From IMG/VR virus record IMGVR_UViG_3300020045_011964: a stretch of DNA of 64,000 nt, one strand, 5' to 3'. The first letter of the stretch is position 1. Each line of letters starts with the position of its first letter. Origin of the DNA: an uncultured virus (IMG/VR IMGVR_UViG_3300020045_011964) (Duplodnaviria > Heunggongvirae > Uroviricota > Caudoviricetes). A model generated the notes under the pieces. It searched no databases. It saw only the letters and a list, made by a program, of their open reading frames with translations, and had not been told where the DNA came from. A program made the position numbers and the translations under genes. Of this stretch, positions 3,147 through 63,444 are shown piece after piece.

Positions 3147-4156
3147 TCAAGAGTTTATTTTAATTATTTTTATGTTGTCCTTTTGTGCCAGATCGTAATA
3201 TTTGAGATATTTGACAATTTCCACTTCCCCGAGAGGCATGTATTTTGCGTTGGGGTGTTCGGTTAAATATCGTTTGCGCCAGGCTTGCCATTTTCTTTGG
3301 ATTTTCCGGGCAATGCGTTGATTGATGCGGGGGTTGTGATGGACTCCGGCCCAAACTAAATTTAGGTTTGCGTCTAGCGCGAAAATTTGAAATTGTTTCA
3401 TAGTTTTATCTCCTTTTATTTAATTAAATAATTCGGCTTGTTCAGGCAAAAATAAATCGGGCTGAATCTTCCGGGCGTGTTTAATTTGTTGTTTAGTTTT
3501 GCATTTGGCGCATAAACCGTTTTTCATCTCAGCCGGTTTGTAGTATTGGTCACAGTGGGCGCAAACCTGAGTTTGCCATTGCTGATTGAAATTAGTTTTT
3601 TCGTTTTCCATTGTTTTAATCTCCTTTACCCTTTGCAATTTTAAGAAATTCTAATGCATCGTTATTTTTTTGAATTTTTTCAAGCAGTAATTTGTTTTCT
3701 TCCTCAAGTTTTGTCCGGGCATCCTCGATGCTGGTTTGAGGAATAAATTTTTGCCTGCCTAAAATGCGGTTCAGTTCTCCGATGGTTCGATAAGCCTGAA
3801 ATGCTTTTGCGACGTTGAATGTCATTGTTTTAATCTCCTTTAATTTGATAACTGCCCTTTGTTCGTTCTATGGTTTGTAATCGGTTTTAGTTCAACTCGA
3901 TTAGAATATATTCGCCGGATTTAATTTTTGCTTCGGTTTGTTTCGTTTCTTCACATAAAAAAGCGTTACGATGTTTGGAAGTTGTCCAAGAATAATTCCA
4001 ATAAGTTTTATCCAGATAAATTTTATTATCTTTTCTGGATTTAAACACAATAATTGAAGAGTAACTTTGAAAATAAACCCCGTCATCAGTAATAATTTTA
4101 AATTGGTTTCGGACTCCGTTAAATTCTTCGACTTGAATTTTTAATTTGTTTGACAT
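3147..4156 (-). other. Cluster of four small early hypothetical genes (3147-3401, 3420-3611, 3616-3825, 3887-4156)
   Basis: Each ORF is preceded by an AAGGAGAT(T/A)AAAAC-type RBS leader. Confidence 0.7.
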
Positions 4157-4212: not shown

Positions 4213-4986
4213 TTATTGGTAACTTTCAGCGATCTTTTTTGCCCAATAACGGGCGGCCTCGCTGATGTGTCGTTGCCAGGCTCCGGCGTTAGGCGACCAT
4301 CTAAAACCATTCCGCTTTAACTGACTTCTGATTTCTTCACTTGGTTTGCCTGGAAAGAAAATTTGTGTTCTGTTTTCGTCGGCGTTTTCAACAATTTTAA
4401 TTCCGTTAATTTCCTGTTCGGTAGTTTCCAAAGATTCTTTCTTTTGTTCATCCTGTAAACGCTGTTTCAACCGGCGAATATTCGCCGAGTTGTTTGTTAG
4501 TTGATAATCGGCAAAACCAATGCGCCCGCAAAAGTCCGGCCTGAATAGCTGATTAACCGCTTTTTCTGAAAATCCGAGGTCAAGCAAGCCTTCGACATCG
4601 TTTTTTCTGACAAGTTTATTTGCTTCGCGCATTAAAACTTGCATCTTTTCCAGCCTTTCGATTTTTTCAGCCAGTTTTTCTATTGCATTCGGATCATCTG
4701 AAAAGATGGCTTTATTTTTGGCGGCAGATTCGGCGCGTCTGGCGTAATAATCGGCTTTTTTATCAAGTTCAATACTTTTTCGCATAGCGTTGTGCATTTT
4801 CTCTTGAGTTTTCCGGGCGCGTTTTTCGCTGTGATGACCAACCAAGATCGGTTGACCGCCCCAAAATGCCTGTGATAAATTATCGGATGTTTTTTGCGCG
4901 GCTTCTGATTCTCGACGGGCTTTTTCTGATAATTCCTCAAATCTTTGAGTGCGTTGTTGTTTTCTTTCGTTAAAATCTGATTTCAT
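4213..4986 (-). CDS. DUF3560-domain protein
   Basis: Signature GQPILVGHHSEKRAR ... IFSDDPNAIEKL ... QIFFPGKP..IR.QLK.NGFRWSP..GAWQR. Confidence 0.8.
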   Translation of the reverse strand: MKSDFNERKQQRTQRFEELSEKARRESEAAQKTSDNLSQAFWGGQPILVGHHSEKRARKTQEKMHNAMRKSIELDKKADYYARRAESAAKNKAIFSDDPNAIEKLAEKIERLEKMQVLMREANKLVRKNDVEGLLDLGFSEKAVNQLFRPDFCGRIGFADYQLTNNSANIRRLKQRLQDEQKKESLETTEQEINGIKIVENADENRTQIFFPGKPSEEIRSQLKRNGFRWSPNAGAWQRHISEAARYWAKKIAESYQ

Positions 4987-13071: not shown

Positions 13072-13091
13072 TTTTTTTCTCCTAAAATCTC

Positions 13092-13260
13092 AATAGAAAG
13101 GCTTTATAAGTTTGCTATAAATAAAAGCCTCTCTGTTCAGATTTGAGTTAAAAGGGCGGTTATTCATTTCTAACCAAGCCCGCCCTTTCTATACTCCCAA
13201 GGTAAATAACTCGCTTGAAATCTGCGGATTTGCACCGCTTTATCGCTGACCGAATTTCAA
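13092..13260 (-). ncRNA. Cluster of hairpins including a minimal acceptor+T-arm-like element (13215-13260)
   Basis: Stems 13092-13137 and 13151-13188; TGAAATT...GCGG-TGCAAAT-CCGC-AGATTTCA. Confidence 0.4.
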
Positions 13261-13292
13261 ACCCCTGACTTTTCTAGCAGGTCGGCTCTGCT

Positions 13293-13759
13293 TCAACGGC
13301 TGACCGTTAAACTTTTCCAAAATTTTTCCATTGCTTTTTTTGCTTCGTTTAGTGTTTCAAATTCGTGCCTTTGACCTTGAAAAATACTTGAATAATATTT
13401 GCCTTTACTTTGATAAGGCTGTCTGTATTCTGTTGAGATTACAAAGATTGCACCTTTAGTTCTGACCGCTTCTTTACTGTTATATCCAACAACAAGTTTA
13501 TTTTCTTTTTTCCAAATCATTTGTTTCCTCCTTATTAGTAACTATAATTATGCGGAATTAAAGATGTAATATCTTTAGTCCAATCCGGTTTTTTCCACTC
13601 ATCCTGCGTAAAGCAAAAATGAGTTAATTTCTTTTCTTCTTTTGTTAAACACTTCTCACAAAAATAAATATCAATTTTTGTGTAAGTAGTGGAATTTCTC
13701 CCGCTATTTTCTGCGTATTTTATAGTTTCCTGATGCACAAATTTATGTTCACAGTCCAT
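13293..13759 (-). other. Two small hypothetical genes (13293-13520, 13535-13759)
   Basis: ORFs with RBS; the second has a C.H...C.KC zinc motif. Confidence 0.65.
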
Positions 13760-13786
13760 TTTTAAACCTACCTTTTTTCAAAACTC

Positions 13787-13970
13787 AATAGGACAAAGGC
13801 AAGAATTTCACTTGCGAAAAGGTTTCCGTCAATGCTTCTGTTTTTTATCTTTTCCTTTTCAGACTGCCGAACTGACTTTACTTAGAATCTAATTCTTTCA
13901 AGGATTTGCGTGTCCGGCTCTTAGGACGACTCAACTCTACCCATCTGCGTAATCGCCACTTTGCCCTATT
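13787..13970 (-). ncRNA. Structured RNA unit 1: tRNA-like shell with long insert
   Basis: Closing stem AATAGGGCAAAG/CTTTGTCCTATT (G-U on minus strand); T-arm GCAAG-TGAAATT-CTTGC directly before the 3' stem. Confidence 0.65.
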
Positions 13971-13986
13971 CAATTTTCAAAAACTC

Positions 13987-14132
13987 AATTGAGTGGTCTG
14001 TTAAGGCTCTCGCAATGTCATCCGGGTAATTGGTTATTCAGCCGGGTATCATCCTCATTCAGCATTGGCACACCCAATAAAACCTTTGCTCTTAGGCGTT
14101 AAACTTCCGCCACAAAACTTGACCACTCAATT
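13987..14132 (-). ncRNA. Structured RNA unit 2
   Basis: Perfect 12-bp closing stem AATTGAGTGGTC/GACCACTCAATT between identical 16-nt linkers. Confidence 0.6.
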
Positions 14133-14148
14133 CAATTTTCAAAAACTC

Positions 14149-14331
14149 AATTGGGCAAAAGACACTTTATGGATAGTCAACCACTTCTGGTTTGCCCGGA
14201 TAATGGGGTTTATCAACCTTGCTGTCCGAATTGTGTGTTATCCAACAACGAATCTGTTTCTGACTAAAAAACCTCGTCCGCCAATGAAAACAACCACCTG
14301 TGTCCAGAGACATCCCTACATTTGCCCAATT
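14149..14331 (-). ncRNA. Structured RNA unit 3 (long imperfect rod, 183 nt)
   Basis: Perfect 11-bp closing stem AATTGGGCAAA/TTTGCCCAATT plus nested helices GGACAC/GTGTCT and CGGA/TCCG. Confidence 0.6.
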
Positions 14332-14524
14332 CAATTTTCAAAAATCCTTTTAAGCGGGAGGCTGAATCTACTTCGATTCGCTAACCCCCCGTTGTTTCTA
14401 GCTCTAGTTCCTGTAATTATTGAGTTATTCAGTTGTCAAAGACCTTATAACTACAAAATTACAGTTGAACAAAAATAACCCTTTCGGGTATTGGGTATGT
14501 TGCAACCCAATCTCTTTTCAAAAA

Positions 14525-15457
14525 TCATCCGTGAACTCGAACTCTTTTATATTCCTCTGCCGTCAAATCCCACGCTTTTGCCTGACAAGCCAAAGCAGAT
14601 TTGCTTTGACGAGCAAATTCAGGTTCAACAAACTCAACAAAAGTTCGTCCTGTCGGACATTTCATTTTTAAGAAATAAATCTCTTTTTCTTGCGTGAAAT
14701 CGTTCAATTCGTGGTTCTTGAGTAAATAAAGTTCGTCACCCATAAAAGATTTGTCTAACAATTTAGCGGGTAATTGCAGAAGGGAATTAGAACAATATTT
14801 CAAGGCAACCGCTTGCGCATCGGCGTTTTCAATCTGCATAATTTCAGCAAATGAAGCGGTTTGGTTGGTAACTTTTTGCCAGATGGTTTTATCCAGGCTA
14901 ATACCGTCCAGAAAATAACATTCCAGACCGTCTTTCCACGCAATAGCGGGTTTTGTTTCTGAATGAAATCTTTGCTGCTCATCCTGATAAACAATCGCGT
15001 TTGGGCAAATATAAAGGATGCCGTCCTTTTCAGCCCAATAGCCTGCACCTGCTTCTTTTAACTGCAAAAACAATTCCTGAGATTCTAAGAATAATTTATC
15101 GTGTTGGTTGATTTTGTCTGGATTCGCTTGAGCAAATTCAAAACAAAAGATAAATTCTTGCCCATCGCAGTCAGTAGCCGAACTAGCCGACCTAGCCGAA
15201 CTAGCCGACCAAGCCGACCAAGCCGACCAAGCCGACCTAGCCGAACTAGCCGACCAAACCGACCAAGCCGACTCTAAAAAATCTTTATTAGTAATATCAA
15301 TACACCAAATAATGTTTGGAACTGGTAAATTGAATAATTGATAAGATTTATTTACTAATTCCGTTATCTTATCTTTGTCAAAAACATACTCTTTGCGCTC
15401 GGCAACCCTGCACATTCTATCTAAAAGTTGTTGTGTTTTTTCTGAATATTCCGGCAT
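14525..15457 (-). CDS. DUF6745-like protein with SAW/SAR repeats
   Basis: 9-nt tandem repeat at about 15176-15272; RFHSETKPAIAWKDG...YFLDGI...IMQIEN motif; C-terminal L.M.CPTGR.F...V. Confidence 0.7.
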   Translation of the reverse strand: MPEYSEKTQQLLDRMCRVAERKEYVFDKDKITELVNKSYQLFNLPVPNIIWCIDITNKDFLESAWSVWSASSARSAWSAWSAWSASSARSASSATDCDGQEFIFCFEFAQANPDKINQHDKLFLESQELFLQLKEAGAGYWAEKDGILYICPNAIVYQDEQQRFHSETKPAIAWKDGLECYFLDGISLDKTIWQKVTNQTASFAEIMQIENADAQAVALKYCSNSLLQLPAKLLDKSFMGDELYLLKNHELNDFTQEKEIYFLKMKCPTGRTFVEFVEPEFARQSKSALACQAKAWDLTAEEYKRVRVHG

Positions 15458-15459
15458 TG

Positions 15460-16020
15460 TTAATCCCTCACTTGCTCCTTTAATAAATTTTCTGACCATT
15501 TATGAGGGCAAATTTTTTCTTTGCCTCCATAGAAAGACCGGGCAAGATTGCAGTTATAGCAAAGCACCTGAAACATTTCAGGAAAATCGTTTTTTACAAT
15601 CCAATCAACTATGTTGTCCTTAAACGTTTTTCGATGCTCTGACCCGTCACTTGCTTTATGGTCTAAAGTTAAAAAATAGAAATTTGATTCGCCACAACAA
15701 ATACATTTGTTTCCATAATGCTGTAAAACCTCCCTTCTTTTTTGTTCCTTTTTGATTTTTAATTTTTCAGTATATTTTTCTTTGTGTTTTGCTCTTGACT
15801 TGGCGCTTTGCTCCCTCACTCTTTCGGGATATTTCATTCTGTAGTTTTGATTAGACCGTCTGTGGTGCTTTTTATCCTCTACAGTGTGGTTTGCCCTCCA
15901 GCGTGCGTTCATTTTGTTGTGACAACTTTTGCAATGGGAATGTAAGCCGTCTTTAGTTCGATTATTTTTGTAATAATCAGAAAAAGGTTTATCTTCTACA
16001 CAAACAGTACATTTCTTCAT
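15460..16020 (-). CDS. HNH endonuclease (sense-oriented, free-standing)
   Basis: N-terminal KKC..C...KP...Y...DGL...CK.C; C-terminal C.CCGE...LTLDH...QVLCYNCN. Confidence 0.85.
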   Translation of the reverse strand: MKKCTVCVEDKPFSDYYKNNRTKDGLHSHCKSCHNKMNARWRANHTVEDKKHHRRSNQNYRMKYPERVREQSAKSRAKHKEKYTEKLKIKKEQKRREVLQHYGNKCICCGESNFYFLTLDHKASDGSEHRKTFKDNIVDWIVKNDFPEMFQVLCYNCNLARSFYGGKEKICPHKWSENLLKEQVRD

Positions 16021-16368: not shown

Positions 16369-16399
16369 AATTTACTCCTTTTTTTTATTTCAAAAACTC

Positions 16400-16497
16400 A
16401 ATATTTGAATCTGGCTTAGTAGCGGAAATTAGCGGATCGTTTGGCTTGTCATCATTGTTCGTAACTTTCAAAAGGCGTGACACCGGATTCAAATATT
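16400..16497 (-). ncRNA. Structured RNA unit 5
   Basis: 15-bp closing stem with one mismatch (AATATTTGAATCCGG/CCAGATTCAAATATT), flanked by boxA-like linkers. Confidence 0.55.
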
Positions 16498-16519
16498 CAA
16501 TTTTCAAAAATCTCATAAA

Positions 16520-16667
16520 GCTGAGAATCGGACTTGAACCGACTTGCCCTTGCCGACTACTTAAAAAATGTTCACCATTTATCATTCGTCATCATAAAAA
16601 GTTAGCTAAACTTTTTACTCGAAAAGTTTTAGTTTTGACTCAAGGTGCTTAACCCACTGCTCTCAGC
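16520..16667 (-). ncRNA. Structured RNA unit 6: tRNA-like shell with long insert
   Basis: 7-bp acceptor GCTGAGA/TCTCAGC; canonical T-arm GTCGG-TTCAAGT-CCGAT; CCTTG/CAAGG helix enclosing about 90 nt; no anticodon loop, no encoded CCA. Confidence 0.7.
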
Positions 16668-16758
16668 AATTTTCAAAATGCGGGAAGGAGAACAATCGAA
16701 TAAAACCTTCCCGCATCAGTCGTGGCTTCCGCTCCCAATGCCACGAAAAAAAAACTTA

Positions 16759-26226: not shown

Positions 26227-26623
26227 TTGAACTGCCCCGCCCTATACATCGAGACTCGCAAACTAAACTTCACCAAAGCAGAGCAGTTCAAACTAAATTG
26301 GCGGCTGAAACTGAAAATTAGTTGAAAGTGATTCTGGCAGGAGAAAACTAGAACCTTAATTTATCAAAGGTTTTTCCAATCGCGTCGAGCCGCCAAACTG
26401 TTTATTGCAGTCTGCCCGATCCGCACCTTTAGGCTGATAGCTAACCAGGTCTTTGTCTATCATTTAACGGATTCAGGTGTGAGAACTCTCCAACCTACGG
26501 CTATGTTCTACATTTCAACCCGAACGACTGCAAATTGATTTTCAAAATATCTTGGATGCTTTTCTCAAGGTGCACACAATTAAGAGTGGTCTTCTCTCTT
26601 ACTTTCACTTGAACTCAGCACCC
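26227..26623 (-). ncRNA. Third array of stem-closed RNA units (26227-26291, 26298-26396, 26405-26533, 26554-26623)
   Basis: Closing stems of 7-17 bp, several with minus-strand G-U pairs; boxA-like GATATTTTGAAAATCAA at 26535-26551. Confidence 0.6.
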
Positions 26624-26664
26624 GTTTCCTATTATTTTCCAAAAACTCTTTTTTGGCAAGAGTT

Positions 26665-29600
26665 TTATCGCTCACTTCGTTGCCTTGTTTGCCGTCGTCT
26701 GCCCGTTCCCGGACTTATGTTAGTCCCCGGCGGCAGAATTTTTTGTAGAATTTCTCTCGCATTTGCTTTTGAAAACTCATCCGAAGTCTTACTTTTCAAA
26801 ACATTTTCAAGTTTTGTTTTATACATTGGCAGTAGTTCTTCTTTTTCTTTTTCGGTTGCCTGCCGCCAAACCTGCTCGGCAGATGACACAGGTTGTTTAA
26901 TTTCTACTTGTGCAGACAACGGTTTGAAGTTTTCCTGCAAATCTGTTGTGGACATTGCTTTGATTCCGTAATCCTCCTGCCCTTTGGTGATCACGCCTTC
27001 CTGAACAAAGGTATTGAATTTCTTCTCTAAGGCTTTCAGACCTTCTTTATCGCCTAATTCACGCAAACGATCGCTTTCTTTTTCAAAGTCGCGTTTGACT
27101 GCCGCTTTCATTTTTTCATCAGCTAATTCAGGACGGCGATACCCGCTTTTGAAAGCAAGTTTGCGGGCGGTAATCTCTGCCGCCGAAGGTTCTTTGGTTA
27201 AGAAATTTCCGTCCGTCACATTAAATCCGAAAATCTTTAAGATCGGAACTTTATTACGAATTGTCGGTGCTTCGGTTGCGTAATTTTTACGCGCCTTGAC
27301 CTTATCCTTAAAGACAGCCTCTAAAATTCGTCTTGATTCAGGCAATCTTTTATCAATCCCTTCCAAAAACGGTCTGTCATCGAGATTCAAAGGTGTTTGT
27401 TCGTAAGTATCAAACTGAGCAAACAAATCCTTAATGGTTTTAGCCTGAATAAAGTTTGTATTTGTGCCTAAAACATTGCCCATCCACCTATTAATGGCCT
27501 GAACGAATCTTTCATCTTCTCTGTCATAATTATTACCCCGTGACCACGCCCATTTACCTCCGTAGGTCAATGCTTTCAATAAATCACCTTCAAACGCGGC
27601 ACGATATGAAAATCCGGTAAAGGCTTCAAGTAATTCTGCCGCTTGTTCGTCATAATCCTTGTCAGTAAATAAATCCTTGCCGTTCCGCAGACGATTGATC
27701 TTATTGGCGATAAAGACGAACGGAGCCAACATCGGTTGTGTGCGGACATCGAAATAATAACTGCCGGTCGGATTGTTCGGAGTTTTTTCTGCCATCCCTT
27801 CCGTCATCGGAATTCTTAAATAGTTCCAATCATCTCTGTCGCCTAAAGACGCAACCATTCCGACCGCCAATGCCAGGACACCCCATCCCCAAATCTGGTT
27901 AGCAATTTGTCTGGATGTCCAATTTTCTTTGATGGCTTGTTTAATGAAATGATCTTCACCCGCTAATTTTAAGGCTTTAGCTCTTGCGCCTGTTTTGATC
28001 AGTAATCTCGCTTGCGCAATTACCGGAATCTTGGTCTTGGTCTTGTTAATGGTGTTATACATAAACCCGACAAACGGTGCCAGTTCCGATGCGGCTAAAT
28101 CAATTGCCCCGCTTCGATGGATAGTTTCTAAAACAGTTGCAAAAACGTAATCGTTGTATGATCCGCTTCTCTTATCAGGACGAAGCGCATAGGTCAGTTC
28201 CAGCACACGCTTGAGAACAAACTCCACATCTTCCTGCGTAAATTGTGAGAAATCCACTCCCTCAGTAATGTCTATCCCTTTTTGACGGGCAATATGAGCA
28301 AGTGCATTGACACCTTCAATGTCACGCATCAAAAATTCCTGCCAGCGCATTGCCTTCATACCCGGAGTGACATCGAGCCATTTAATAACTCCCGGCGAAA
28401 AATCCGATGAAAACCGTCCGTAAAAAGATTGAAAGTATTCGGGATGCTCGTCAATCAGGCGCAGCATTACTTCGTGTTTCGGCATCCCTTTGCTTACTTC
28501 ATTACCGAATTCATCAATTGTGGTTTCCGTAAATGTCGGAGTTTTCCAGACATCTTTAATAGATGCGTCACGGTTTAATCCTTCATCCTGCAAACCCTTG
28601 AATACTCTTTGCAAGGTCAAATCCATAGTGTCAATAACCTTGTTCATTCCGTAATTTTCTAATGTAGTTGAACCTAAATTGGTAAAAACGGTTTGAAACA
28701 GCGAGGTCATTCCCATCCGGCGAACCTGTGCAATGATATGAAGCAGAGAAGGCTTTCTTTCCAGAGTTGCGGCGGTTTGCTGCAACTTATCCATTGCTTT
28801 TGCCCGTGCGCGTTTTACTACTGCTAATTCCTTTTCCATTTCAAGGGTAATACCCCTCCGACGTTTTGCTTCAACTCTCAGGTTTGCAGCTACGAGTTTA
28901 TTGAGCTTGGCTGCTTTTGCCGTTACTTTCTGTAAATCTTCGACTTTTGCGTGTTGTTGATCACGGGTATCGGTTGATTTAATACCGAACCTTTCAGGAA
29001 ATAAATCTTTGATGGTTTTGCCGAGAGTGGTTGCAGTTGCGTTATTGGTTGCTAAAGCCAATGCACCGATAACCACTTCATCTTCGGAATTCGGCACAGT
29101 TTCTTCGGCAACTTCGATATACTTAGCTACAAAAGCGTTTTTAGCATTGGCAAGTTTATCCGAGACATCGGCTGTTTGTTCGGTTTCGGGTAAGGCTTGT
29201 TGGTTTGGATTGGGAACAATCGCAAACAAATCAGGTTTTCGTTCCTTATTCTTAAAGAAAAGATTCTTGAGTTCCTTGAGATTGTTGATTATTTTCTGTC
29301 CGGTTGAAACATCTTTAGCATTTTCATCGGCAAGTTTTTGTTTAACCTCTGCCATTTTTTTAGAGGTTTCCGCTACTTCTTTTGCCTGTGCTTTGATTTC
29401 GGCAATTTCTTCAAGTGTTAATGGCGTTCCGATTCCGTTCTGTGAGCGTTTCTTTTCAATGTATTCCACAGCAGTAGCGGGATCGAATAAACCCCATTCG
29501 GCAAGCTGACGAATAAATTGTCCGGCATCCGTTCCCTGTTCGGAAATGGCTTCAATAACCTGTTTTTTCCGTTTGTTGTAAATTTCGGCAAGTGCTTTGT

Positions 29601-32600
29601 CACCGCTTGCAAGCGCATCTTCCGCTTTGAGGGCTAAGAGTTGGGCAACTTCCATCTGGAAAGTTCCGTGTTTGCGTAGAGAGACGGGATCATTTACTCC
29701 TATCGGCACAATTGCCTGATTGATTGCGTCCGTCAGTCCTAGTTGGTCAATCCTATCCTGTGCTTCACGCTTGTTGCCTTCAACGGATTTGACTTCGTAG
29801 TAACCTTTTGCACCGAGTTCTTCTTCCTCAATCAATCCTCGCTGTTCAACGGTTTGGACGGTTTTTCGCTTTTTGATGATTGGCTCATCTCCGCTTTTTG
29901 TTTGTCGAGATACTCCATCATCTTTGCCATCTGTTCCGCCCTCGACCCCTGTAATATCTCCGGCATCTGTTTGGCTGCTTTCGCTAGTGCTTGCCGGCGG
30001 TTTCGTAAAGATTGTCTCGATTGCTTGCTTTGCATAGTCTATTTCTCCAAATCGGTTAAACGCTTCCTGACGGGCAGTATTAGCCTCAGTCGGCGATTTC
30101 CTTAATTTTATATTATCATCATAAACTTTTTGTCCGAAACTTGTAAAAAAGTTAATTAAATACTCGGCTGCCTGTTCTTGAGTTAAGCCCAATTTTGCCC
30201 AATCGCCGGCGGCGGAATAAGCGGCAATTTCTTCCCTGATAACCGCAGCTCTCGCTTGTTCGGGATTTTTGATTTTTTTGGCTTTGAAAGATTCCAGAGA
30301 GTATTCGGGTTGTTTGTCAAAGAAAGTGTTGACCGCTTTCGTGTAGATTGGACTATTATCCAATTTAGTTTTGCCTGCCTCAGTATGGCGGTCATCCAAA
30401 TCTTTTCCAAACTGCGACAACATTGATTGCTGGTGTAAGATTTCGTGTGGTAACTGTTCATCTAAAACATAGAAGATAACCGAACCGCGTTCACCTTTTT
30501 TGATACCTTCTTTAATAGTATCGGCAAACGCCTGAATCTGTTTGGCAAGTTCGGGATTGGCAGTTTCAGCCCGGCGCGCAAGAGATTCTAACACCCGAAC
30601 ACCTTCCGGCACTTTTTGTAAATCCGTTGGAGTCAGTCCCGTAAACGCCGGATAGGGCTGTTTTTCTCTTAATTTACCCAACCCTCTTTGAATGTCCACT
30701 TGCTCAAGAGCGCGTCTGACCAATTCCATTCCGGCAAGATTTAATTGCAGCCTGTCACCGACTCTGATGATTTGGGCTTTTTCAATTACCTGCGGCAAAG
30801 GAACGGTCTGAATTTGCCTGAACTGCTTCATCCTCTGCTTTTCCGCATCAGGCGATTCTTCGGATGCCATTTCATTTCTGACAGTTTTTTTAGCGATAAC
30901 GATGTCGCCTTTAACGGTTACTTCGTCACCGAAAACTAAAGCGACTTCGGACATATAATCTTTCGCTAATCTGTTTTCCTGCCAACCCTTACTGGTTTGT
31001 TTGGGTTGATTGTCCCGCGCACCCTCATAAATCTTGAAATATGCCGTCCCACCTTCTTTTAAGGCGTTATGCGCTTGCATTATAACGAGTCGGCGGTTTC
31101 CTGGTTCCTGAATAACATTTAGAACATTATTGACGGTTGCCGTGTCGGATTGTCCGCCACGGATTTGTTCGACCGCTTTTTCGTTATGTTCTTTACTGCG
31201 GTTGAACGGGTCAAAAACAACATTGGTGACACCTTGTTTCCCTAAAAACTCGGTGGCGTTATCGAACCGACCGCCGCCGATGTCGGCATTTTTCGTACCT
31301 GATTGCCAATCGACAAAATTAAAAGTGGTCGGTAATTTACTGCTGTTGATGGACGTATCTGCCGAAGTGAATTCCTGTTCAGGGATTTCCCACAAACTGT
31401 CCGACGACCGCGTTTCATTCCGCGCCATCGCCAACAGTTCGCCTTCGGTAATAACTATCTGCCTTGCTCTCGGAGTATCTTCCGTGGCTGAAAAAGGATA
31501 CTGCTCTCTTTCTTCGTCAGAGAGTTCCCTACGAAATTCGACGTTCCGCGCTTCCGCTTCACCGGCAATTCGTTGATATTTTTCAAACGCCTCTTTAAAT
31601 TCCGGCGAGGACATATCGAAAGATTCCGCTTTTCCTTTGTCGAGAAAAAGATTGGCGCTTCCGCCGACCGGAAAACCTTCCGCAAATTGGATGATATGCT
31701 GAACTTCGTGGAGGATGACCGAAAGTTTGGATGAAGGCGACAACGATGATCTGACCTTTATCTGAATTGGTGTTCCGCCCATCGTCACACCTTTTTGCTG
31801 TAAAGTCGGCGATAATGTCACCGCAACTTTTTTAAGTTCAGGATAGGCCTTAAAAAGTTCGGGAAACTCAAGCATTTCGTCCAATGTTCCGGCAGTTTCA
31901 TAAACCGACATTTTTTTAGCTAAAGGTGTCAGTTCTGCTTTGGAATCATTGAGTTCGGTTTGCCAATCACCTTTAACATTCTTTTCCCAACCCGTTGCGA
32001 GAAATATTCTACTGTCTGAAATCCCTGCTTCATCCATCGCTTTCGCAACGGCTAAGTTTTTCAGACGTTTTTGAGAATCGGTTAAATTCTGGACACCCTG
32101 CTCACCGATGATGGCGAACATTTCCTGAATATCTGTGCCGGAATCTTTCGTTAATCCGCTTTCGGGTTCTGTATCTTCGGCGGATTCGGTTTCTTGACGG
32201 TCTGCGGTTTTAGCTTGCGCTTCATCATCCAATCCTTCCTCAGTTTCACCAAGTCTCTCCCCATCCTCATCAACGCTTTTCTCAAATTTGAATTCTTCAT
32301 CGTATCTCGGAGCCTCCACATACTTAACTTTAAATACTTTTTCTATTGCTTCGCTTTTATCCAACGGCATCTGCGCCTCTGCAAAAAGCGTTGCTTCTGT
32401 GCCTTTTATTGCTTCAGCGTAATCCTTAAACAATTGTCTGATTTCTTTTTGTGTTTCCGCTTCGGCAAACTTTTGAGCAAAAAAGAGTTCTACCGGAGTA
32501 TAAATATCTGCCGGAGCCTGTCCGGTAAAAATATCCGCCTGCGTTGCCCACAACTGAAAAGGAATTTCTTTTTCCTCACTGATTTCCAGATAGGAATTTG

Positions 32601-35600
32601 CCGCCTGCATCGCCATTTGGATTTCCGGCACTAAGACACTTTGCTGCGAAACGGAATAAATCACCGGAATCGCGTTAAGTAATGCCTCTCTTGCGTTAAA
32701 CGGCAGATTTTCAAAAACAGTAGTCAGGTCAGGATGCCCGTTAGTGAATAAAAACTCACGGAACAATCCCTGAATATCTTCAATTCCGCGCGGACTAAGT
32801 TGACCGTCATTATTTAATAAAGAATTGTAATGCTGTTCGCTTAGATGATTTTTCAGTCCGTTTAAGATATTTTGTTCATTTTCCCGAATTGCTTTATTCA
32901 GTGTCCAATCAGGTTTTATAAATTCAAAAGCATTTCGCAAAATCTTGGTTTGGTCACGATAAGGAATCTGATTGGCAGTTGCTCTCGGATCAAGACGCAG
33001 ACCAACCCCTGTTTCCATATCCGTTACTTTTTTATTGCCTAAAAGAATTGCTTCTTCGTCAGTAACTTCAATTACCCGAACCATCACAGGTTTTTTCAGT
33101 TTTTCAACCTGTTCTTTTTTGAAACCGAACTTTTCGGCATTTTCAAGTAATTGCTTGCGGTAAAGGTCATTTAATCCGTAAGATTTTTTAATTCCTTCCG
33201 AACGGTTGTTGCCTTGAATAACTTCTCCGCGTGAATTGACTGTCGGTGCGCCGAAAAAAGCGTTAGTATTCACTCCTAAGTCACCGAAACGAGGGTTTTT
33301 AGCAATATCATCAGACGCTTTCTTACGAACATCAGTTGCTACATTCGGTTGTACCAAAGGTAGAAAATGATGCAGATTCGGATTTCCTTCTAAATCGGCG
33401 GGTTGTAATGAATCTGCCTCAATCAACCCGTAATGGAAAGGAACATCGTGAGTCGGAGAAAATCTAACCGTTCCCTCATCGCCTTTGGTTTGAATAGTTG
33501 TTTTTGGTTGACGAACATATTCAACCCCATCTTTGGTAAAACGCCCTGCTTTTCTGCGTTCATCTGCCGATGACTTTTCAAGCGGAGGTTTTTCTAATTC
33601 TTTTGGTAGAGTAGATTCACTTGTTTGCTCTATCGGTTTTGTAATTGGTGAAATATCAATAATATTATCCAGAACTTTTCTTTCTTCCAGATGCCCAACA
33701 CCCTTCATCTGGCTTTTGACATCTTCCGCAACCTGACTAGCAAGCCCAAAGATTTCGTTCTCGGAAACACCGATCTGTTTGGCTAAAGACACCCTTAAGT
33801 CTGATAAGTCCTTAACTTTCGTCTGATTTGCCTTCTGCCCACCGCCAGTCATTTTTTTCTTTTCATTGGCGTAATAATCAAAGAGGTCGCGTTGTATTTT
33901 GGAAGCAAAAATAATTGTGCCGTCATTGGTTCCCGCCCGATAATTACGAACCAAACCTTTAGGTGCTGTTTCCTCAATTTTTGATACCTTACTTTCGGGT
34001 TGCGGGGCTTCATCCTTTTGCTCTATTGGAATATTATTAACCTTTCTTTCCGAATAATTATTTAACCCATCATTTATCTGACCTTTTTCGACAAGTGTTA
34101 TTTTACCGTTCTTATCAACTGTAATTTTAGCGGGTTTGGTTAATGTCCACTCGGTCGGATTGGATAGTTCTTCAATGTCGAAGAATTCCTGATAACCCCC
34201 TTCTTTTTGATTTCTTGGTGAAACCGCCGAATCGAATTGCGGAACAACCGCATAACTGCCGTCGGGCTGTTTGATGCCTCGCAGCGAACCATTGTTCATT
34301 TGCTGGAAATCAAAAGTTACCCCGTGTTTACCCATTGCCATATCGGTAGCGTTGGCGTTCCCGAAACGGATAACATCCTGATTTTTTTCATACCAATCAT
34401 TTCGCGCCTGACGGTTTCCGAAAACATTTGCCTCATTAAATTCTTTAGCAACAATGTCTTTGGTTTTACCTTCCAGAACAGGTTCGGTTTTTGGAGTTAC
34501 ATCCTTCTTCTTAGCCTGTGCCAGAGTGTTTTGAACAATCGGTTCGCCCACTTCAACGCCTTTCGGTTGACTTGGCTCTTTAGTTTCAGGCAAGTCAAAA
34601 TCAAAATCTGTCTGCCTTTGCCCCGTTGCTACCGAATCAAGCCAATTCTGCGTTTCTTCGGGTAGTTCTTCAATTTTAGGCTGAACTGTTTCGGGTAATT
34701 CCTGTTCCGGTTCGGTTATTGCGTTTTCATCAACAACGGTTGCTTTGTTTTTACGAACAAAAGATTTTGTGCCGTCATCAAATTCGACAACCAATTGATT
34801 GCCTTTAATGTCCGTGACCACACCCTGTTTGGTGACAGTTCCGCCTTTAGCCTTGATTTCAGTCTGAATAGTTGAACCGACAACGGGTTTGGTTGAAACG
34901 GGAACGGCTTGCTGTTTCTCCGCTTTTGCCTGTTCGAGAACTTTATCAACTTCGGCGATTTTTGCTTCAACTTCTTCCGGTGTCAGGGGTTTGAGTTCTG
35001 TTTGGGCTTTTTCAGGTTTAATACCAAATAAATTATTAGTAAATTCTTCGACATCGGCATCATCCTGTTCGGTTTGAGATTCCAAGGCGATTTGAAAGCC
35101 TGCCCCACCAAGTCCGCCGATAGCACCGCCCAAGAATTCCATCATATCTTCTTCGCTGAGAACAAAGACCTTTCGGGACGGATCATAAGTCAGACTTGCG
35201 ACAAAATCATTAATTTTCTTTTCGGATAGTTCCTGTGTTCCTTCTAAAAATGCGCCGGTAGCTAATGTTCCGCCCTTTTTCAAGAGATTCGCAAATGCGC
35301 CTTTAGTAACTTCAACCGCCGCTTTTTCGCCGACTTCCTGAGATGCTTTAGCAAAAATACTGCCTAAAATTTTACTGAAAAACCCCGCTTTTTCCGCTTT
35401 GCTTAAAGGCGACAAAAATCTTGCCAGAGGGATTGCATCGCTGACCGCCGCCACCCCACCGACAATAGCGGCAAGTTTCCGTTCAAAAGGCTGTGCGCCT
35501 TTTTTTAGTGCTTCGTCATACTGTTCCGCCGCACCCATTGATGAACCAAGCAAAACAGGTAAAGTCATTCCGCCCGACAATGCACCAAGTCCGATTTGAA

Positions 35601-37701
35601 CCATAACTTGTCCAATGGCTTTCGGTGCGATATTTGTCAAAATATAATCTGATTTAGTGAATTGTAAATCTTTATTTTGCGCTTTTTCTAACCGCTTACT
35701 GATAATGTCGCCAAACTGATACAAACCGCCGTCTTTTGCTTCAAATTGCTTGCCATTAACAATAACACTGTAAATGTTCTGTAAAGATAACGGCATAGTT
35801 TCGCCGACTATATCAATTGTTTTAGCAACGGACGCAAAAGCATCAGGAATGGTTGACGCAAGACTTTTAACAAATTCTGCCGGTTTAGCCATCGGACGAG
35901 TAGAATCAAAAACCGTTCCGTATTCTTTCTCAATCCGTTGCTGTTCCTGATAATACTTATCAAACGATTTATATTTAGCCAGAATCTTTTCTTTCTGTGC
36001 TTCAATGTCCGCTAAATTTGCTTGTTTTGCTTCTTCGGGAGAAACATAACCCTGCGACAAAATAAACCGGTTATACGCTTCCTCGTCTGAAATCTTATTT
36101 TCATCCTCAAATCGTTTGGCTGCGGCAAGTTCTCTTTCTTCTGCTTCTTTACGTCTGCTTTGCCGGGCTTGATATTCTTCTGCCGAAATAATGCCTTCAT
36201 TCAAAAGAGCATCATCCTGACTTTCACCGTTTTTTATTCTTGCTTCAACCGCTTCGCGTTTGGTTTTTATTTTTTCAGCGTCCGCAAAGATTTTAGCCGG
36301 AATACGGTGTGTAACCGTTCCCCCGCCTTTCGACAGTTCAATTAAATCCGTATCAGTAATACGTCCGCCTTCTTCAAAGTTAATCGGATTGTTAGCCAGA
36401 ACAATTTCAATATCCTGCGGACTGACGCCACTTTCCCGTAAGGCTTGAGCAGTTGTTTCATTTAGTCTTTGACGGACATCTTCGCCTTGCTCGATTTGCA
36501 ATCGAATCGTTTTATCTTTATATGAAGCAATTCTTTGTGCTTCTTTAACTGCGGCTTCTTCTCTGATTTCTCCGTTGGGCGAGACAATATAAACAATACC
36601 ATCCCGCTCACGGCGAACTTCGCCTTTATTCAAACCTTGTTGGTCTTTTGCAAAAGTATATTCGTTGCCCTTAGAGTCTTTAATAACCGGTGCGTTGGGA
36701 TCGGCGGCAACCGCAACAGTTCCGCTTTTTGGCAAAGACCTGTTATATTCTTCAACCTGTTTATTATACTGAGCGGCATTGGCGGCATTTTGACGATTTG
36801 CCTCTGCAATCGTCATTTTTTGAATATTGTTAAAATCGTCAATCAAACCTTGAGTGACCGGCGGATTACCCATCGCCGCCAAATAATCCTGAAAGTTTTT
36901 GGCAATTTCTTTTTGGTCAGCCACAGGCGGCGCAACTACCTGAGAAGTTATCGCCGGTGCGGGTTTTGGTTGGGCTTGATTCGCCATCCATTGCTGAAAT
37001 TCCTGTTGATTTTCAATTAATGGCGGCTGTTCCTGAACCGGAGATTTAATAGTCTGTGTTCCCGGGACTGTCGGCTGCGGAACTTGCGGTAAATTAAAGT
37101 CTTTCGGTAACGTGACACCCGCTTGTTTGTAATCTTCAAGTGTCGGATATTCGACCGGCACATCTCTGGTCATTACATTTGGCGATGAATATTCAGGAGT
37201 TTCATTTTGACCAACTAAATCCGGTGCGTTTTTTTGAACAATGTCATCTAAAAAACCAAAACTCTTGCCTGGTTTTCCCCGATAATATTTTTTATAACGT
37301 CCATCAAAATAAGCTCCCCAATGATTTAACGGTTCTCCGGTTTTATGTCCTTGTTTATAGACATCTAAAGCAACTTTGGCATTATACACAGGATCGGACT
37401 GCAAACGGTTGACATCATATTTTCTTTGTCTTTCGGGATGGATCATATTGATCTGCCAAATTCCGTAAGACTTCTCTTTGGTAGGTTTTCCGCCGTGACC
37501 GACACCGGGATTAAAGGCGTTGACCTTACCCGAACTTTCAGCCATCCCGATAGCCGACATCTTCGGAATTAAAGATTCATCCCACCCCGCTTTCCGCAAG
37601 GCATCTTCAAGATCATCCTGTGAAAGAGTTTGTTTTTTTGTTTTGGTTTGCCCTTTGGCAATTTTATCCAAAAATGAAAAATCTTTATCGTATCCGTCCA
37701 T
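26665..37701 (-). CDS. Giant polyvalent virion/ejection protein (3678 aa)
   Basis: N-terminal lytic transglycosylase (MAESSG...SYGIWQIN); ParB/ddrB-like domain (GAP.V...GEVIQGNNR); LPD23-type zincin (LHEVQH.IQ..EGF..GG...GEAEAR); SAM-MTase-like domain (DIGGGRFD...FDPFNR...NVLNVI); second HEILH. Confidence 0.85.
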   Translation of the reverse strand: MDGYDKDFSFLDKIAKGQTKTKKQTLSQDDLEDALRKAGWDESLIPKMSAIGMAESSGKVNAFNPGVGHGGKPTKEKSYGIWQINMIHPERQRKYDVNRLQSDPVYNAKVALDVYKQGHKTGEPLNHWGAYFDGRYKKYYRGKPGKSFGFLDDIVQKNAPDLVGQNETPEYSSPNVMTRDVPVEYPTLEDYKQAGVTLPKDFNLPQVPQPTVPGTQTIKSPVQEQPPLIENQQEFQQWMANQAQPKPAPAITSQVVAPPVADQKEIAKNFQDYLAAMGNPPVTQGLIDDFNNIQKMTIAEANRQNAANAAQYNKQVEEYNRSLPKSGTVAVAADPNAPVIKDSKGNEYTFAKDQQGLNKGEVRRERDGIVYIVSPNGEIREEAAVKEAQRIASYKDKTIRLQIEQGEDVRQRLNETTAQALRESGVSPQDIEIVLANNPINFEEGGRITDTDLIELSKGGGTVTHRIPAKIFADAEKIKTKREAVEARIKNGESQDDALLNEGIISAEEYQARQSRRKEAEERELAAAKRFEDENKISDEEAYNRFILSQGYVSPEEAKQANLADIEAQKEKILAKYKSFDKYYQEQQRIEKEYGTVFDSTRPMAKPAEFVKSLASTIPDAFASVAKTIDIVGETMPLSLQNIYSVIVNGKQFEAKDGGLYQFGDIISKRLEKAQNKDLQFTKSDYILTNIAPKAIGQVMVQIGLGALSGGMTLPVLLGSSMGAAEQYDEALKKGAQPFERKLAAIVGGVAAVSDAIPLARFLSPLSKAEKAGFFSKILGSIFAKASQEVGEKAAVEVTKGAFANLLKKGGTLATGAFLEGTQELSEKKINDFVASLTYDPSRKVFVLSEEDMMEFLGGAIGGLGGAGFQIALESQTEQDDADVEEFTNNLFGIKPEKAQTELKPLTPEEVEAKIAEVDKVLEQAKAEKQQAVPVSTKPVVGSTIQTEIKAKGGTVTKQGVVTDIKGNQLVVEFDDGTKSFVRKNKATVVDENAITEPEQELPETVQPKIEELPEETQNWLDSVATGQRQTDFDFDLPETKEPSQPKGVEVGEPIVQNTLAQAKKKDVTPKTEPVLEGKTKDIVAKEFNEANVFGNRQARNDWYEKNQDVIRFGNANATDMAMGKHGVTFDFQQMNNGSLRGIKQPDGSYAVVPQFDSAVSPRNQKEGGYQEFFDIEELSNPTEWTLTKPAKITVDKNGKITLVEKGQINDGLNNYSERKVNNIPIEQKDEAPQPESKVSKIEETAPKGLVRNYRAGTNDGTIIFASKIQRDLFDYYANEKKKMTGGGQKANQTKVKDLSDLRVSLAKQIGVSENEIFGLASQVAEDVKSQMKGVGHLEERKVLDNIIDISPITKPIEQTSESTLPKELEKPPLEKSSADERRKAGRFTKDGVEYVRQPKTTIQTKGDEGTVRFSPTHDVPFHYGLIEADSLQPADLEGNPNLHHFLPLVQPNVATDVRKKASDDIAKNPRFGDLGVNTNAFFGAPTVNSRGEVIQGNNRSEGIKKSYGLNDLYRKQLLENAEKFGFKKEQVEKLKKPVMVRVIEVTDEEAILLGNKKVTDMETGVGLRLDPRATANQIPYRDQTKILRNAFEFIKPDWTLNKAIRENEQNILNGLKNHLSEQHYNSLLNNDGQLSPRGIEDIQGLFREFLFTNGHPDLTTVFENLPFNAREALLNAIPVIYSVSQQSVLVPEIQMAMQAANSYLEISEEKEIPFQLWATQADIFTGQAPADIYTPVELFFAQKFAEAETQKEIRQLFKDYAEAIKGTEATLFAEAQMPLDKSEAIEKVFKVKYVEAPRYDEEFKFEKSVDEDGERLGETEEGLDDEAQAKTADRQETESAEDTEPESGLTKDSGTDIQEMFAIIGEQGVQNLTDSQKRLKNLAVAKAMDEAGISDSRIFLATGWEKNVKGDWQTELNDSKAELTPLAKKMSVYETAGTLDEMLEFPELFKAYPELKKVAVTLSPTLQQKGVTMGGTPIQIKVRSSLSPSSKLSVILHEVQHIIQFAEGFPVGGSANLFLDKGKAESFDMSSPEFKEAFEKYQRIAGEAEARNVEFRRELSDEEREQYPFSATEDTPRARQIVITEGELLAMARNETRSSDSLWEIPEQEFTSADTSINSSKLPTTFNFVDWQSGTKNADIGGGRFDNATEFLGKQGVTNVVFDPFNRSKEHNEKAVEQIRGGQSDTATVNNVLNVIQEPGNRRLVIMQAHNALKEGGTAYFKIYEGARDNQPKQTSKGWQENRLAKDYMSEVALVFGDEVTVKGDIVIAKKTVRNEMASEESPDAEKQRMKQFRQIQTVPLPQVIEKAQIIRVGDRLQLNLAGMELVRRALEQVDIQRGLGKLREKQPYPAFTGLTPTDLQKVPEGVRVLESLARRAETANPELAKQIQAFADTIKEGIKKGERGSVIFYVLDEQLPHEILHQQSMLSQFGKDLDDRHTEAGKTKLDNSPIYTKAVNTFFDKQPEYSLESFKAKKIKNPEQARAAVIREEIAAYSAAGDWAKLGLTQEQAAEYLINFFTSFGQKVYDDNIKLRKSPTEANTARQEAFNRFGEIDYAKQAIETIFTKPPASTSESSQTDAGDITGVEGGTDGKDDGVSRQTKSGDEPIIKKRKTVQTVEQRGLIEEEELGAKGYYEVKSVEGNKREAQDRIDQLGLTDAINQAIVPIGVNDPVSLRKHGTFQMEVAQLLALKAEDALASGDKALAEIYNKRKKQVIEAISEQGTDAGQFIRQLAEWGLFDPATAVEYIEKKRSQNGIGTPLTLEEIAEIKAQAKEVAETSKKMAEVKQKLADENAKDVSTGQKIINNLKELKNLFFKNKERKPDLFAIVPNPNQQALPETEQTADVSDKLANAKNAFVAKYIEVAEETVPNSEDEVVIGALALATNNATATTLGKTIKDLFPERFGIKSTDTRDQQHAKVEDLQKVTAKAAKLNKLVAANLRVEAKRRRGITLEMEKELAVVKRARAKAMDKLQQTAATLERKPSLLHIIAQVRRMGMTSLFQTVFTNLGSTTLENYGMNKVIDTMDLTLQRVFKGLQDEGLNRDASIKDVWKTPTFTETTIDEFGNEVSKGMPKHEVMLRLIDEHPEYFQSFYGRFSSDFSPGVIKWLDVTPGMKAMRWQEFLMRDIEGVNALAHIARQKGIDITEGVDFSQFTQEDVEFVLKRVLELTYALRPDKRSGSYNDYVFATVLETIHRSGAIDLAASELAPFVGFMYNTINKTKTKIPVIAQARLLIKTGARAKALKLAGEDHFIKQAIKENWTSRQIANQIWGWGVLALAVGMVASLGDRDDWNYLRIPMTEGMAEKTPNNPTGSYYFDVRTQPMLAPFVFIANKINRLRNGKDLFTDKDYDEQAAELLEAFTGFSYRAAFEGDLLKALTYGGKWAWSRGNNYDREDERFVQAINRWMGNVLGTNTNFIQAKTIKDLFAQFDTYEQTPLNLDDRPFLEGIDKRLPESRRILEAVFKDKVKARKNYATEAPTIRNKVPILKIFGFNVTDGNFLTKEPSAAEITARKLAFKSGYRRPELADEKMKAAVKRDFEKESDRLRELGDKEGLKALEKKFNTFVQEGVITKGQEDYGIKAMSTTDLQENFKPLSAQVEIKQPVSSAEQVWRQATEKEKEELLPMYKTKLENVLKSKTSDEFSKANAREILQKILPPGTNISPGTGRRRQTRQRSER

Positions 37702-63225: not shown

Positions 63226-63444
63226 TTATTCGTTACAGGCAATCGTGGCATTTGCCAACATTCTTACTAAAGCGATTTGCCGAATCGCTACCGTTTGGTC
63301 GGCACAAGGCGGAGTATTATCCAAAACCACTTGTGCAAAATATTTTCCCGCTTCGGAAATCTTGGCATATCTTTCCGCTTGATCGCCTTTCGGGGCGTGA
63401 TATGTGAACAAATTATCTAAATCCTGTGTGCTGTATCCAGCCAT
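63226..63444 (-). CDS. Acb2/Tad1-like helical-hairpin anti-defence sponge
   Basis: FTYHAP..DQ..RY..I....K.FA.V.....P..ADQT.AIR.....RM.ANA.IA. Confidence 0.65.
   Translation of the reverse strand: MAGYSTQDLDNLFTYHAPKGDQAERYAKISEAGKYFAQVVLDNTPPCADQTVAIRQIALVRMLANATIACNE

Follow-up and report, generated by a model that had tools for sequence, protein, structure and literature searches.

The uncultured tailed phage with the IMG/VR record IMGVR_UViG_3300020045_011964 is represented by a contig of 73,788 bases, of which a 64 kb stretch (the window) was analysed. The large open reading frames (ORFs) of the window all lie on its minus strand, and two of the gaps between them are taken up by arrays in which segments of unrelated sequence alternate with copies of a short common linker. 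Array A (13773-14527, minus strand) fills the gap between an ORF of 324 amino acids (aa; 14525-15499) and one of 74 aa (13535-13759), both on the minus strand, and a second array of two units (16383-16681, minus strand) lies between ORFs of 71 and 113 aa. An earlier note on this DNA had described array A as a series of separately closed units. Our analysis supports this description and adds to it the second array and a complementarity between the two halves of the linker, both of which are newly seen.

Anatomy of the two arrays

Read along the minus strand, array A consists of linker A0, a leader unit of 163 nucleotides (nt; U0), linker A1, unit U1, linker A2, unit U2, linker A3, unit U3 and a terminal linker, which is followed by a ribosome-binding site and an ATG. 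The 16-nt linker GAGTTTTTGAAAATTG is present as two exact copies, A2 (14133-14148) and A3 (13971-13986), around which the identity extends over 24 nt (repeat family D1), and with two mismatches as A1 (14332-14347). Shorter variants bound the array: A0 (GAUGAUUUUUGAAAAG, 14512-14527) overlaps the stop codon of the 324-aa ORF, and the terminal linker (GAGUUUUGAAAAAA, 13773-13786) immediately precedes the ribosome-binding site of the 74-aa ORF, whose ATG is at 13759. U1 (14149-14331, 183 nt) is closed by the arms AAUUGGGCAAA and UUUGCCCAAUU over 11 base pairs (bp), U2 (13987-14132, 146 nt), the best-structured unit, by AAUUGAGUGGUC and GACCACUCAAUU over 12 bp, and U3 (13787-13970, 184 nt) by AAUAGGGCAAAG and CUUUGUCCUAUU over 11 bp, or 12 bp if one G-U pair is counted; in U3 a 5-bp hairpin with a 7-nt loop immediately precedes the 3' arm. 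All three terminal helices start no more than 3 nt from the linker edges. The linker copies listed in the earlier note (exact at 13971 and 14133, variants at 13773, 14332 and 14514), its unit lengths of 184, 146 and 183 nt and its 11-12 bp stems at the linker edges were thus recovered, the lengths to within 1 nt. The leader U0 (14349-14511) has no closing helix of its own and folds into four hairpins, among them ACCC-GAAA-GGGU with a U run after it and another, long and AU-rich, that carries GGUCUUUGACAAC; the sequence GGTCTTTGACAACTGA (14429-14444), which the earlier note had listed as well, is present in the apical part of this long hairpin.

Helices of this kind are rare by chance. Among 20000 mononucleotide shuffles, the helix lengths of U1, U2 and U3 were reached in 10, 1 and 4 trials, respectively (the third tested at 11 bp), and in 266,823 nt of unrelated phage loci, long-range helices of 11 bp or more (single strand, span 70-230) number 118, from which about 0.3 would be expected in 755 nt. 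The linker identities, the rarity of the helix lengths in shuffles and the background in unrelated phages together confirm the observation of array A.

The second array begins with linker variant B0 (CAUUUUGAAAAUU, 16668-16681), directly after a 9-bp GC-rich hairpin (16682-16716). It continues with unit B1 (16519-16667, 149 nt), the B1/B2 linker (AGAUUUUUGAAAAUUG, 16498-16513) and unit B2 (16400-16497, 98 nt), whose arms AAUAUUUGAAUC and GAUUCAAAUAUU form a 12-bp helix of a length reached in none of 20000 shuffles. A terminal linker variant (GAGUUUUUGAAAUAAA, 16384-16399) is followed by AAGGAG and the ATG at 16368 of the 113-aa ORF.

Unit B1 resembles tRNA-Leu(CAA) when ARAGORN is run with relaxed settings. 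Its acceptor stem of 7 bp is perfect, its D stem of 3 bp carries a GG loop and its T arm reads GUCGG-UUCAAGU-CCGAU; the variable region is long, the anticodon loop contains an insert of 68 nt, and a 3' tail of 6 nt separates the acceptor stem from the pairing that we call the clamp (see below). At 95% of the default threshold, with inserts of 0-200 nt allowed, it is the sole call in the window, and with inserts the number of calls rises to 5 at 90%, 23 at 85% and 135 at 80% of the threshold. Since B1 carries G at the usual U8 position, since its 3' tail lacks CCA, and since we know of no self-splicing intron as small as its insert, B1 is tRNA-like and not a tRNA. Two other calls, which appear only at thresholds giving 5-135 calls per window, were discarded: a 'tRNA-Ala' with an intron in U3 and a weak 'tRNA-Phe' at 13216-13326 (minus strand, 90% of the threshold), which combines an AU-rich acceptor stem with a GCGG-UGCAAAU-CCGC hairpin, overlaps the end of a 75-aa ORF and is probably spurious.

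The minus-strand folds of U0, U1, U2 and U3 are 7-12 kcal/mol more stable than the plus-strand folds, and the z-score of the fold is more negative on the minus strand in five of the six segments, B1 being the exception; with clamps, minus-strand z-scores range from -2.6 to -5.1 in five of six segments and stand at -0.95 in B1. The G-U pairs together with the lower energies and z-scores support the minus strand as the RNA strand, in agreement with the earlier note. The array region itself appears to be non-coding, a reading supported by the protein searches: a comparison of the longest ORF across array A (137 aa, plus strand, 14065-14478, starting with TTG) with 1.84 billion representative proteins yielded no relative, Pfam gave no match above the cut-off for any of five candidate ORFs, and no conserved translated ORF, one of the findings that according to the earlier note would speak against its reading, was encountered. 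G+C content is 0.40-0.46 in the units as compared with about 0.28-0.35 in windows on either side.

The unit interiors are unrelated to one another, as had been noted before: all 15 pairwise global alignments gave |z| of at most 1.1, shared k-mers are not enriched, and the motifs that units have in common (CCUAAGAGC, AUGAUGAC, CUGAAUAAC) were dismissed as being at chance level. Structure beyond the closing helix is strong in U0 (z -4.8; -5.1 in the strand comparison) and in U2 (z -3.2; -5.0 with the clamp) and intermediate in B2 (z -2.0). Each unit occurs only once in the window, and a search of the window for antisense targets of the units returned only short AU-rich matches, the best covering 19 of 20 nt (E 0.002, in one of seven queries). 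On the minus strand, no sigma-70-like promoter was found in either array, linker or leader, the nearest being at 13570-13541 and 15300-15271, and the only terminator-like match within the arrays is the small hairpin inside U3. The anatomy of the arrays, their statistical excess of helices, their strand, the lack of a coding signal and the one tRNA-like cassette are established.

Linker halves, the predicted clamp helix and boxA

In the predicted folds, pairing spans the unit and joins GAAAAUU, the 3' half of the linker upstream, to AGUUUUU, the 5' half of the linker downstream. The resulting clamp comprises a G-U, four A-U, a U-G and a U-A pair and is parted from the private helix of the unit by a single G-G mismatch. 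Folded with their linker halves, U1, U2 and B2 show seven clamp pairs, the 1x1 mismatch and 11-12 arm pairs, and U3 shows six clamp pairs and 12 arm pairs; the closing helix with its clamp is thereby predicted to span 19-20 positions in these four units, the clamp contributing about 6-7 kcal/mol to the fold energy. Around the acceptor stem of B1 a 7-bp clamp with six unpaired bases on the 3' side can be read by hand, and the minimum-energy fold of B1 is without clamp pairing. One linker serves two units: the 5' half of A2 closes U1 and its 3' half closes U2, and adjacent closing helices abut at UUUUU/GAAAA with no spacer between them. In a scan of the window, the two arrays are the only places with both clamp halves; at 13084-13094 a variant of the 5' half stands alone, and single matches with one mismatch lie elsewhere.

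The complementarity of its halves explains the near-palindromic look of the repeat; of the three places where the linker, as DNA, fails to be a perfect palindrome, two are wobble pairs in the minus-strand RNA. Judging from these folds, the conserved linker is probably a self-complementary junction and not a single-stranded spacer. The private arms show a matching pattern. Across U1, U2, U3 and B2, arm positions 1-11 are paired in all four units and position 12 in three, nine of the 12 positions have changed on both sides between units with pairing kept, and the G-G mismatch is invariant. This variation is compensatory among paralogous units, not among species, and it is complementarity itself that is kept.

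A third, degenerate array member may be present at 13084-13192 (minus strand), where a 100-nt segment closed by AUAGAAAGG and CCUUUCUAU is followed by UGAGAUUUU; it precedes the start of a pentapeptide-repeat gene and is without the 5' clamp half.

But could the linker be a boxA, as the earlier note had it? An rrn-type boxA before every unit would recruit NusB-S10, with two consequences: antitermination over the untranslated stretch, and a 5' arm kept close to the polymerase for as long as its 3' partner has not emerged. The placement of the motif is right for such a role: boxA sits 5' of the 16S and 23S stems, and the linker stands immediately 5' of each long-range helix. Moreover, Nus complexes protect RNAs of the kind represented here, an untranslated array of about 770 nt within an operon, and boxA upstream of CRISPR operons is on record. 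We scored 13-mers against the boxA-like consensus of the B. subtilis rrn leader, AUGAUCUUUGAAA, and the consensus of E. coli, UGCUCUUUAACA (both as given in PMC13753749), either of which may differ from the boxA of the host. By the B. subtilis consensus, A0 reaches 12/13, with U at the C position, A1 reaches 11/13, and the B1/B2 linker, the terminal linker of array A and the leader sequence GGUCUUUGACA reach 10/13 each, GGUCUUUGACA keeping the C. The two identical and thus best-conserved linkers, however, match worst (8/13, counted by hand) and are absent among the matches of at least 10/13. Every TTTTTGAAAA-type linker has U where boxA has C, and this C is position 4, which is altered along with position 6 in the C4T/T6C double mutant that is reported in PMC5725501 to abolish function in E. 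coli; the consensus given there for gamma-proteobacteria is GYTCTTTAANA. Nor do the scores set the linkers apart: 35 minus-strand 13-mers of the window reach 10/13 as against about 17 in shuffles, three sites in coding regions reach 11/13 and are as good as most linker variants, and by the E. coli or gamma-proteobacterial consensus the linkers are no better than dozens of coding sites. Judged by the consensus with its conserved C, the linkers fall outside the rrn-type boxA family. Finally, the predicted pairing of both linker halves would compete with a single-stranded protein site and thus argues against boxA. We therefore do not retain this part of the earlier note; the resemblance is a lead, and a faint one, and recruitment of NusB-S10 before every unit seems to us quite improbable.

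Known families, relatives and neighbouring genes

The arrays belong to no family against which they were tested, be it boxA, tRNA, CRISPR, MITE, PeSL or any Rfam family. At gathering score, Rfam has no match in the whole window, and at E<10 the two arrays returned noise only, the best sub-threshold matches being to unrelated eukaryotic snoRNA and miRNA models. ARAGORN at default settings finds no tRNA in the window and the Rfam tRNA model is without a match at E<10; no cloverleaf exceeds the detector thresholds, and U1, U2, U3 and B2 show no convincing one. The expectation of the earlier note that such searches would give no full match, and its statement that the locus is neither a CRISPR array nor an ordinary tRNA cluster, were thereby borne out. 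The units of 98-184 nt fit neither the 28-37-nt repeats nor the 30-40-nt spacers of a CRISPR array, and neither cas genes nor Cas domains were found among the 87 window ORFs scanned against Pfam. With no second unit copy in the window and with unrelated interiors the units are not MITEs or palindromic repeats of a dispersed kind, and they lack the combination of sigma-70-like promoter and local terminator stem-loop that defines a PeSL. What the units do have, by prediction, is the duplex of about two turns, formed from the flanks, that characterizes an rRNA-operon-type processing stem (U1, U2, U3 and B2).

Searched as DNA in distant mode against 50,697 phage records, both arrays gave no match. 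The exact linker has three matches in IMG/VR, all in coding sequence of unrelated contigs, and an IMG/VR search by neighbouring proteins yielded no relatives and one spurious 29-residue match (L004). Alignment of the 324-aa protein led to one genome locus and 50 metagenome loci, none of which carries the linker at up to three mismatches, only scattered matches with four mismatches being present. Among the 36 such loci of at least 2.5 kb, none has a gap of at least 280 nt beside the 324-aa gene, and seven have gaps elsewhere; tRNAs were found in 3 of the 36 loci scanned. Since these distant relatives share the 324-aa gene without long adjoining non-coding gaps, we take the arrays, on this comparison of loci, to be accessory. 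A keyword search of the open-access literature found no paper describing such an architecture in phages, as judged by title and start of abstract.

Stem-closed segments of another make were met in two places. In a scan of IMG/VR for the paired core pattern, only one of the 117 loci listed (L080, an unrelated contig) has a terminal helix (13 bp): a lone palindromic element of some 175 nt lies there at 560-760, bounded by inverted repeats of 13 bp and containing further ones. TTTTTGAAAAA stands on either side of it, but as the search pattern selected for these flanks, the inverted repeat alone is informative. In L042, a metagenome contig of 42.8 kb on which the DUF6745-like gene is also found, two non-coding segments lie just upstream of that gene, at 3928-4148 (221 nt) and 4293-4489 (197 nt), closed by helices of 20 and 16 bp (z -4.0 and -3.6); they have no linker in common and no Rfam match at E<10. 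Stem-closed RNAs may thus be a wider habit of this phage group.

The accessory nature of the arrays is also what would be expected of a DNA-level origin, which is the most serious rival to an RNA-based explanation and in our view a decidedly unlikely one. The units would then be mini mobile or recombining cassettes with terminal inverted repeats, inserted or shuffled at a common core of 16-24 bp, and any structure of the RNA would arise incidentally; possible models are Correia/ERIC-type palindromic elements, tandem site-specific integrations and module shuffling through PeSLs. Identical 24-nt repeats do flank unrelated sequence, all units have an imperfect outer inverted repeat that is shared and a private inner one, an HNH/endonuclease VII-like gene lies between the two arrays, and the arrays are absent beside the homologous gene in 50 distant loci; repeats flanking variable cassettes are described as driving shuffling in T4-type phages (PMC2839356). 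However, no integrase or transposase was found among the 87 ORFs, dispersed unit copies are missing from the window, and there are no target-site duplications other than the linker itself. In addition, where the palindrome is imperfect it forms G-U pairs, and it does so only on the transcribed strand; a complete tRNA-like gene makes up one of the units, and the repeat, unlike PeSLs, is without a sigma-70 promoter.

The genes around the arrays agree with a tailed phage without cultured relative. The Pfam scan matched window ORFs to an N-acetylmuramidase, HNH endonucleases, a replication-initiator-like and a primase-like protein, and, below the cut-off of Pfam, to an SU10-type adaptor; a protein of capsid size has no match in the 50,697 phage records. 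The muramidase and the DUF6745-like neighbour of array A have named relatives that include, among others, Acidobacteriota (Pyrinomonadaceae) bins, which is only a hint at a possible host. The DUF6745-like protein is the 324-aa product (14525-15499, minus strand), in which the alignment with its relatives (loci L006-L055) reveals a variable run of three-residue Ser-Ala repeats with the consensus SAxSAxSAWSAW; in many of these loci, repeats at multiples of 9 bases lie inside the matched gene. The HNH/endonuclease VII-like gene between the arrays is located at 15460-16020 (minus strand).

Farther away, two ORFs stand out, one for a polyvalent protein of 3678 aa and one for a small Acb2/Tad1-like protein. 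The former (26665-37701, minus strand) has ddrB-ParB, SLT_3 lysozyme-like and LPD23 domains above the Pfam cut-off and a sub-threshold methyltransferase match. 'Large polyvalent proteins' are thought to enter with phage or plasmid DNA. With this ORF identified as a polyvalent protein, we rejected the idea of an N4-like phage with a virion RNA polymerase, in which the linker might have been a phage promoter. The giant ORF is followed by a 373-nt gap (26292-26664, minus strand) with an AU-rich hairpin and a U run at the gene end and a segment of about 125 nt that is closed by UUGCAGUC and GACUGCAA after a AUUUUGAAAAUCAA motif, with further long-range pairing; it bears only a loose resemblance to the arrays. 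The 72-aa ORF (63226-63444, minus strand) has an Acb2/Tad1 hairpin domain (E 7.9e-7, above the cut-off). Members of this family act as sponges, and the domain match suggests that this protein is a signalling-nucleotide sponge against CBASS/Thoeris-type defence.

Possible processing into discrete RNAs

Taken together, the two arrays look like an rRNA operon in miniature, and it is this anatomy that leads us to propose that they are co-transcribed stable-RNA cassettes with rRNA-operon-like processing helices, a tentative reading to which we give a probability of roughly 45%. Transcription, cleavage and any role in trans are what we infer beyond the anatomy. The cassettes would be transcribed together with the surrounding minus-strand genes, each of them isolated by its long-range helix of 19-20 positions, of which the inner 11-12 bp are private and the outer 7 bp are made by the linkers; these closing helices would insulate the folding of each cassette. 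A host double-strand-specific nuclease of the RNase III type would then cut the helices and release discrete stem-closed RNAs, the invariant G-G mismatch possibly serving as a positioning feature for cleavage. Single-strand cuts in the AU-rich junction are also conceivable, as this junction resembles the single-stranded, uridine-dependent sites of RNase E, for which a uridine two nucleotides downstream of the cut is described (PMC5222698). The released RNAs might be mimics or decoys of host RNAs, with B1 as an imitation of tRNA-Leu with a disrupted anticodon loop. By the same cleavage the 5' end of the downstream mRNA would be trimmed to just before the ribosome-binding site, thereby freeing the mRNA.

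This last step could of course be the whole purpose of the arrays. They would then be purely cis-acting intercistronic elements at which nucleases enter or are blocked, governing how stable the flanking mRNAs are and how they are translated, in the manner of the RNase III sites of phage T7 early mRNA, and the interiors would be functionless. In keeping with such a role, a linker variant is found directly before the ribosome-binding site at 13759, at 16368 and, in degenerate form, at 13071, and the interiors are unrelated and modestly structured. Three or four tandem elements of 146-184 nt, however, far exceed the need of one processing site, one unit keeps a full tRNA-like fold, and U0 and U2 are strongly structured beyond the closing helix. 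We consider an exclusively cis-acting role unlikely.

Several observations weigh against the proposed processing into stable RNAs. Among the 87 ORFs, no RNase or RNA-binding gene was recognized by Pfam. Without clamps, the interiors of U1, U3 and B1 show little structure (z -1.4 to -1.5). In the clamp an A run faces a U run, which makes it low in information and weak when taken alone, and the self-complementary core of the linker allows competing pairings in which two linkers can pair over 10-14 positions. An unconstrained fold of the whole of array A prefers a nested topology with the arms of U1 and U3, which are similar, swapped (-231.7 kcal/mol) over sequential closure (-224.3 kcal/mol); several conformers are thus possible, between which the order of folding during transcription would decide. 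No homologous array was found in the phage records, in IMG/VR or in the loci sharing the 324-aa gene, and there is accordingly no covariation across species. Finally, perfect inverted repeats can also be generated by processes at the DNA level.

By analogy, the arrays would seem to work most like the processing stems of rRNA operons and the mixed tRNA/stable-RNA cluster of phage T4. As in bacterial rRNA operons, one transcript would hold several stable RNAs, the flanks of each pairing over a long range to enclose it, and a short conserved U/A-rich motif stands just 5' of each helix. They differ in that the enclosed RNAs here have about 100-185 nt and, save for the tRNA-like unit, match no known RNA, that the conserved motif takes part in the helices, neighbouring ones having a single junction in common, that the match to boxA is weak, and that cleavage here is postulated. 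The tRNA region of T4 has homing endonuclease genes inside or nearby, and an endonuclease gene, here HNH-like, is found near the arrays as well; we know of no repeated self-complementary junction between the RNAs of T4. The T4 cluster also combines, like the second array, tRNA-type with other small RNAs whose functions are not known, namely RNAC and RNAD, which are listed as RNAs of yet unknown functions (PMC9697503). Different from T4, however, the phage described here has no canonical tRNAs in its arrays, which show no sequence similarity to any phage record.

The likeness to known repeats is of another kind. The PeSLs of T4-type phages are, like the linker, short conserved intergenic modules repeated between unrelated cassettes in a plastic region (PMC2839356); whereas PeSLs consist of sigma-70 promoters and local terminator hairpins flanking small protein genes, the arrays have no detected promoter, their pairing spans the cassette and their cassettes are non-coding. 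With CRISPR arrays they have in common that a conserved repeat alternates with unique segments, but here the segments measure 98-184 nt and bear their own terminal inverted repeat, the repeat measures 16-24 nt, cas genes are lacking among the 87 ORFs, and pairing takes place between neighbouring repeats and not within one. Elements of the Correia/ERIC type are transcribed and cut by RNase III or RNase E, and they too are 100-180 bp long, bounded by inverted repeats and able to form long hairpins in mRNAs; yet they make up dispersed families with conserved interiors and target duplications, whereas in the window the interiors differ and the units abut at two loci only. To our knowledge, neither the shared self-complementary junction nor the abutting of helices is a feature of any of these comparators.

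If cassettes are indeed excised from the arrays, the system could also be modular, a further step that we regard as speculative and rather unlikely. A universal junction would let any RNA of about 100-185 nt join the array, fold alone and be excised, and would thus allow the phage to deliver unrelated decoy or mimic RNAs, the tRNA-Leu look-alike among them, against host defence or RNA-metabolism factors; the junction repeats could at the same time let the cassettes recombine. At the level of RNA, such a cassette system, if true, would correspond to the gene cassettes of integrons or PeSLs.

Apart from tRNAs, little is known of the non-coding RNAs of phages, and here one genome places at least five, perhaps seven, unrelated structured segments under one repeated architectural device. 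On the folds described above, one transcript would hold several small RNAs in what looks like a new kind of packaging, and the G-G mismatch and the abutting helices lead to precise predictions of the position of cleavage. Should the arrays act only in cis or be a matter of DNA alone, they would be an unusual but modest case of intercistronic structure. If, on the other hand, the units are excised and stable, they would be a natural counterpart of engineered multi-RNA expression scaffolds, and new phage RNAs with possible effects on the host could be drawn from them.

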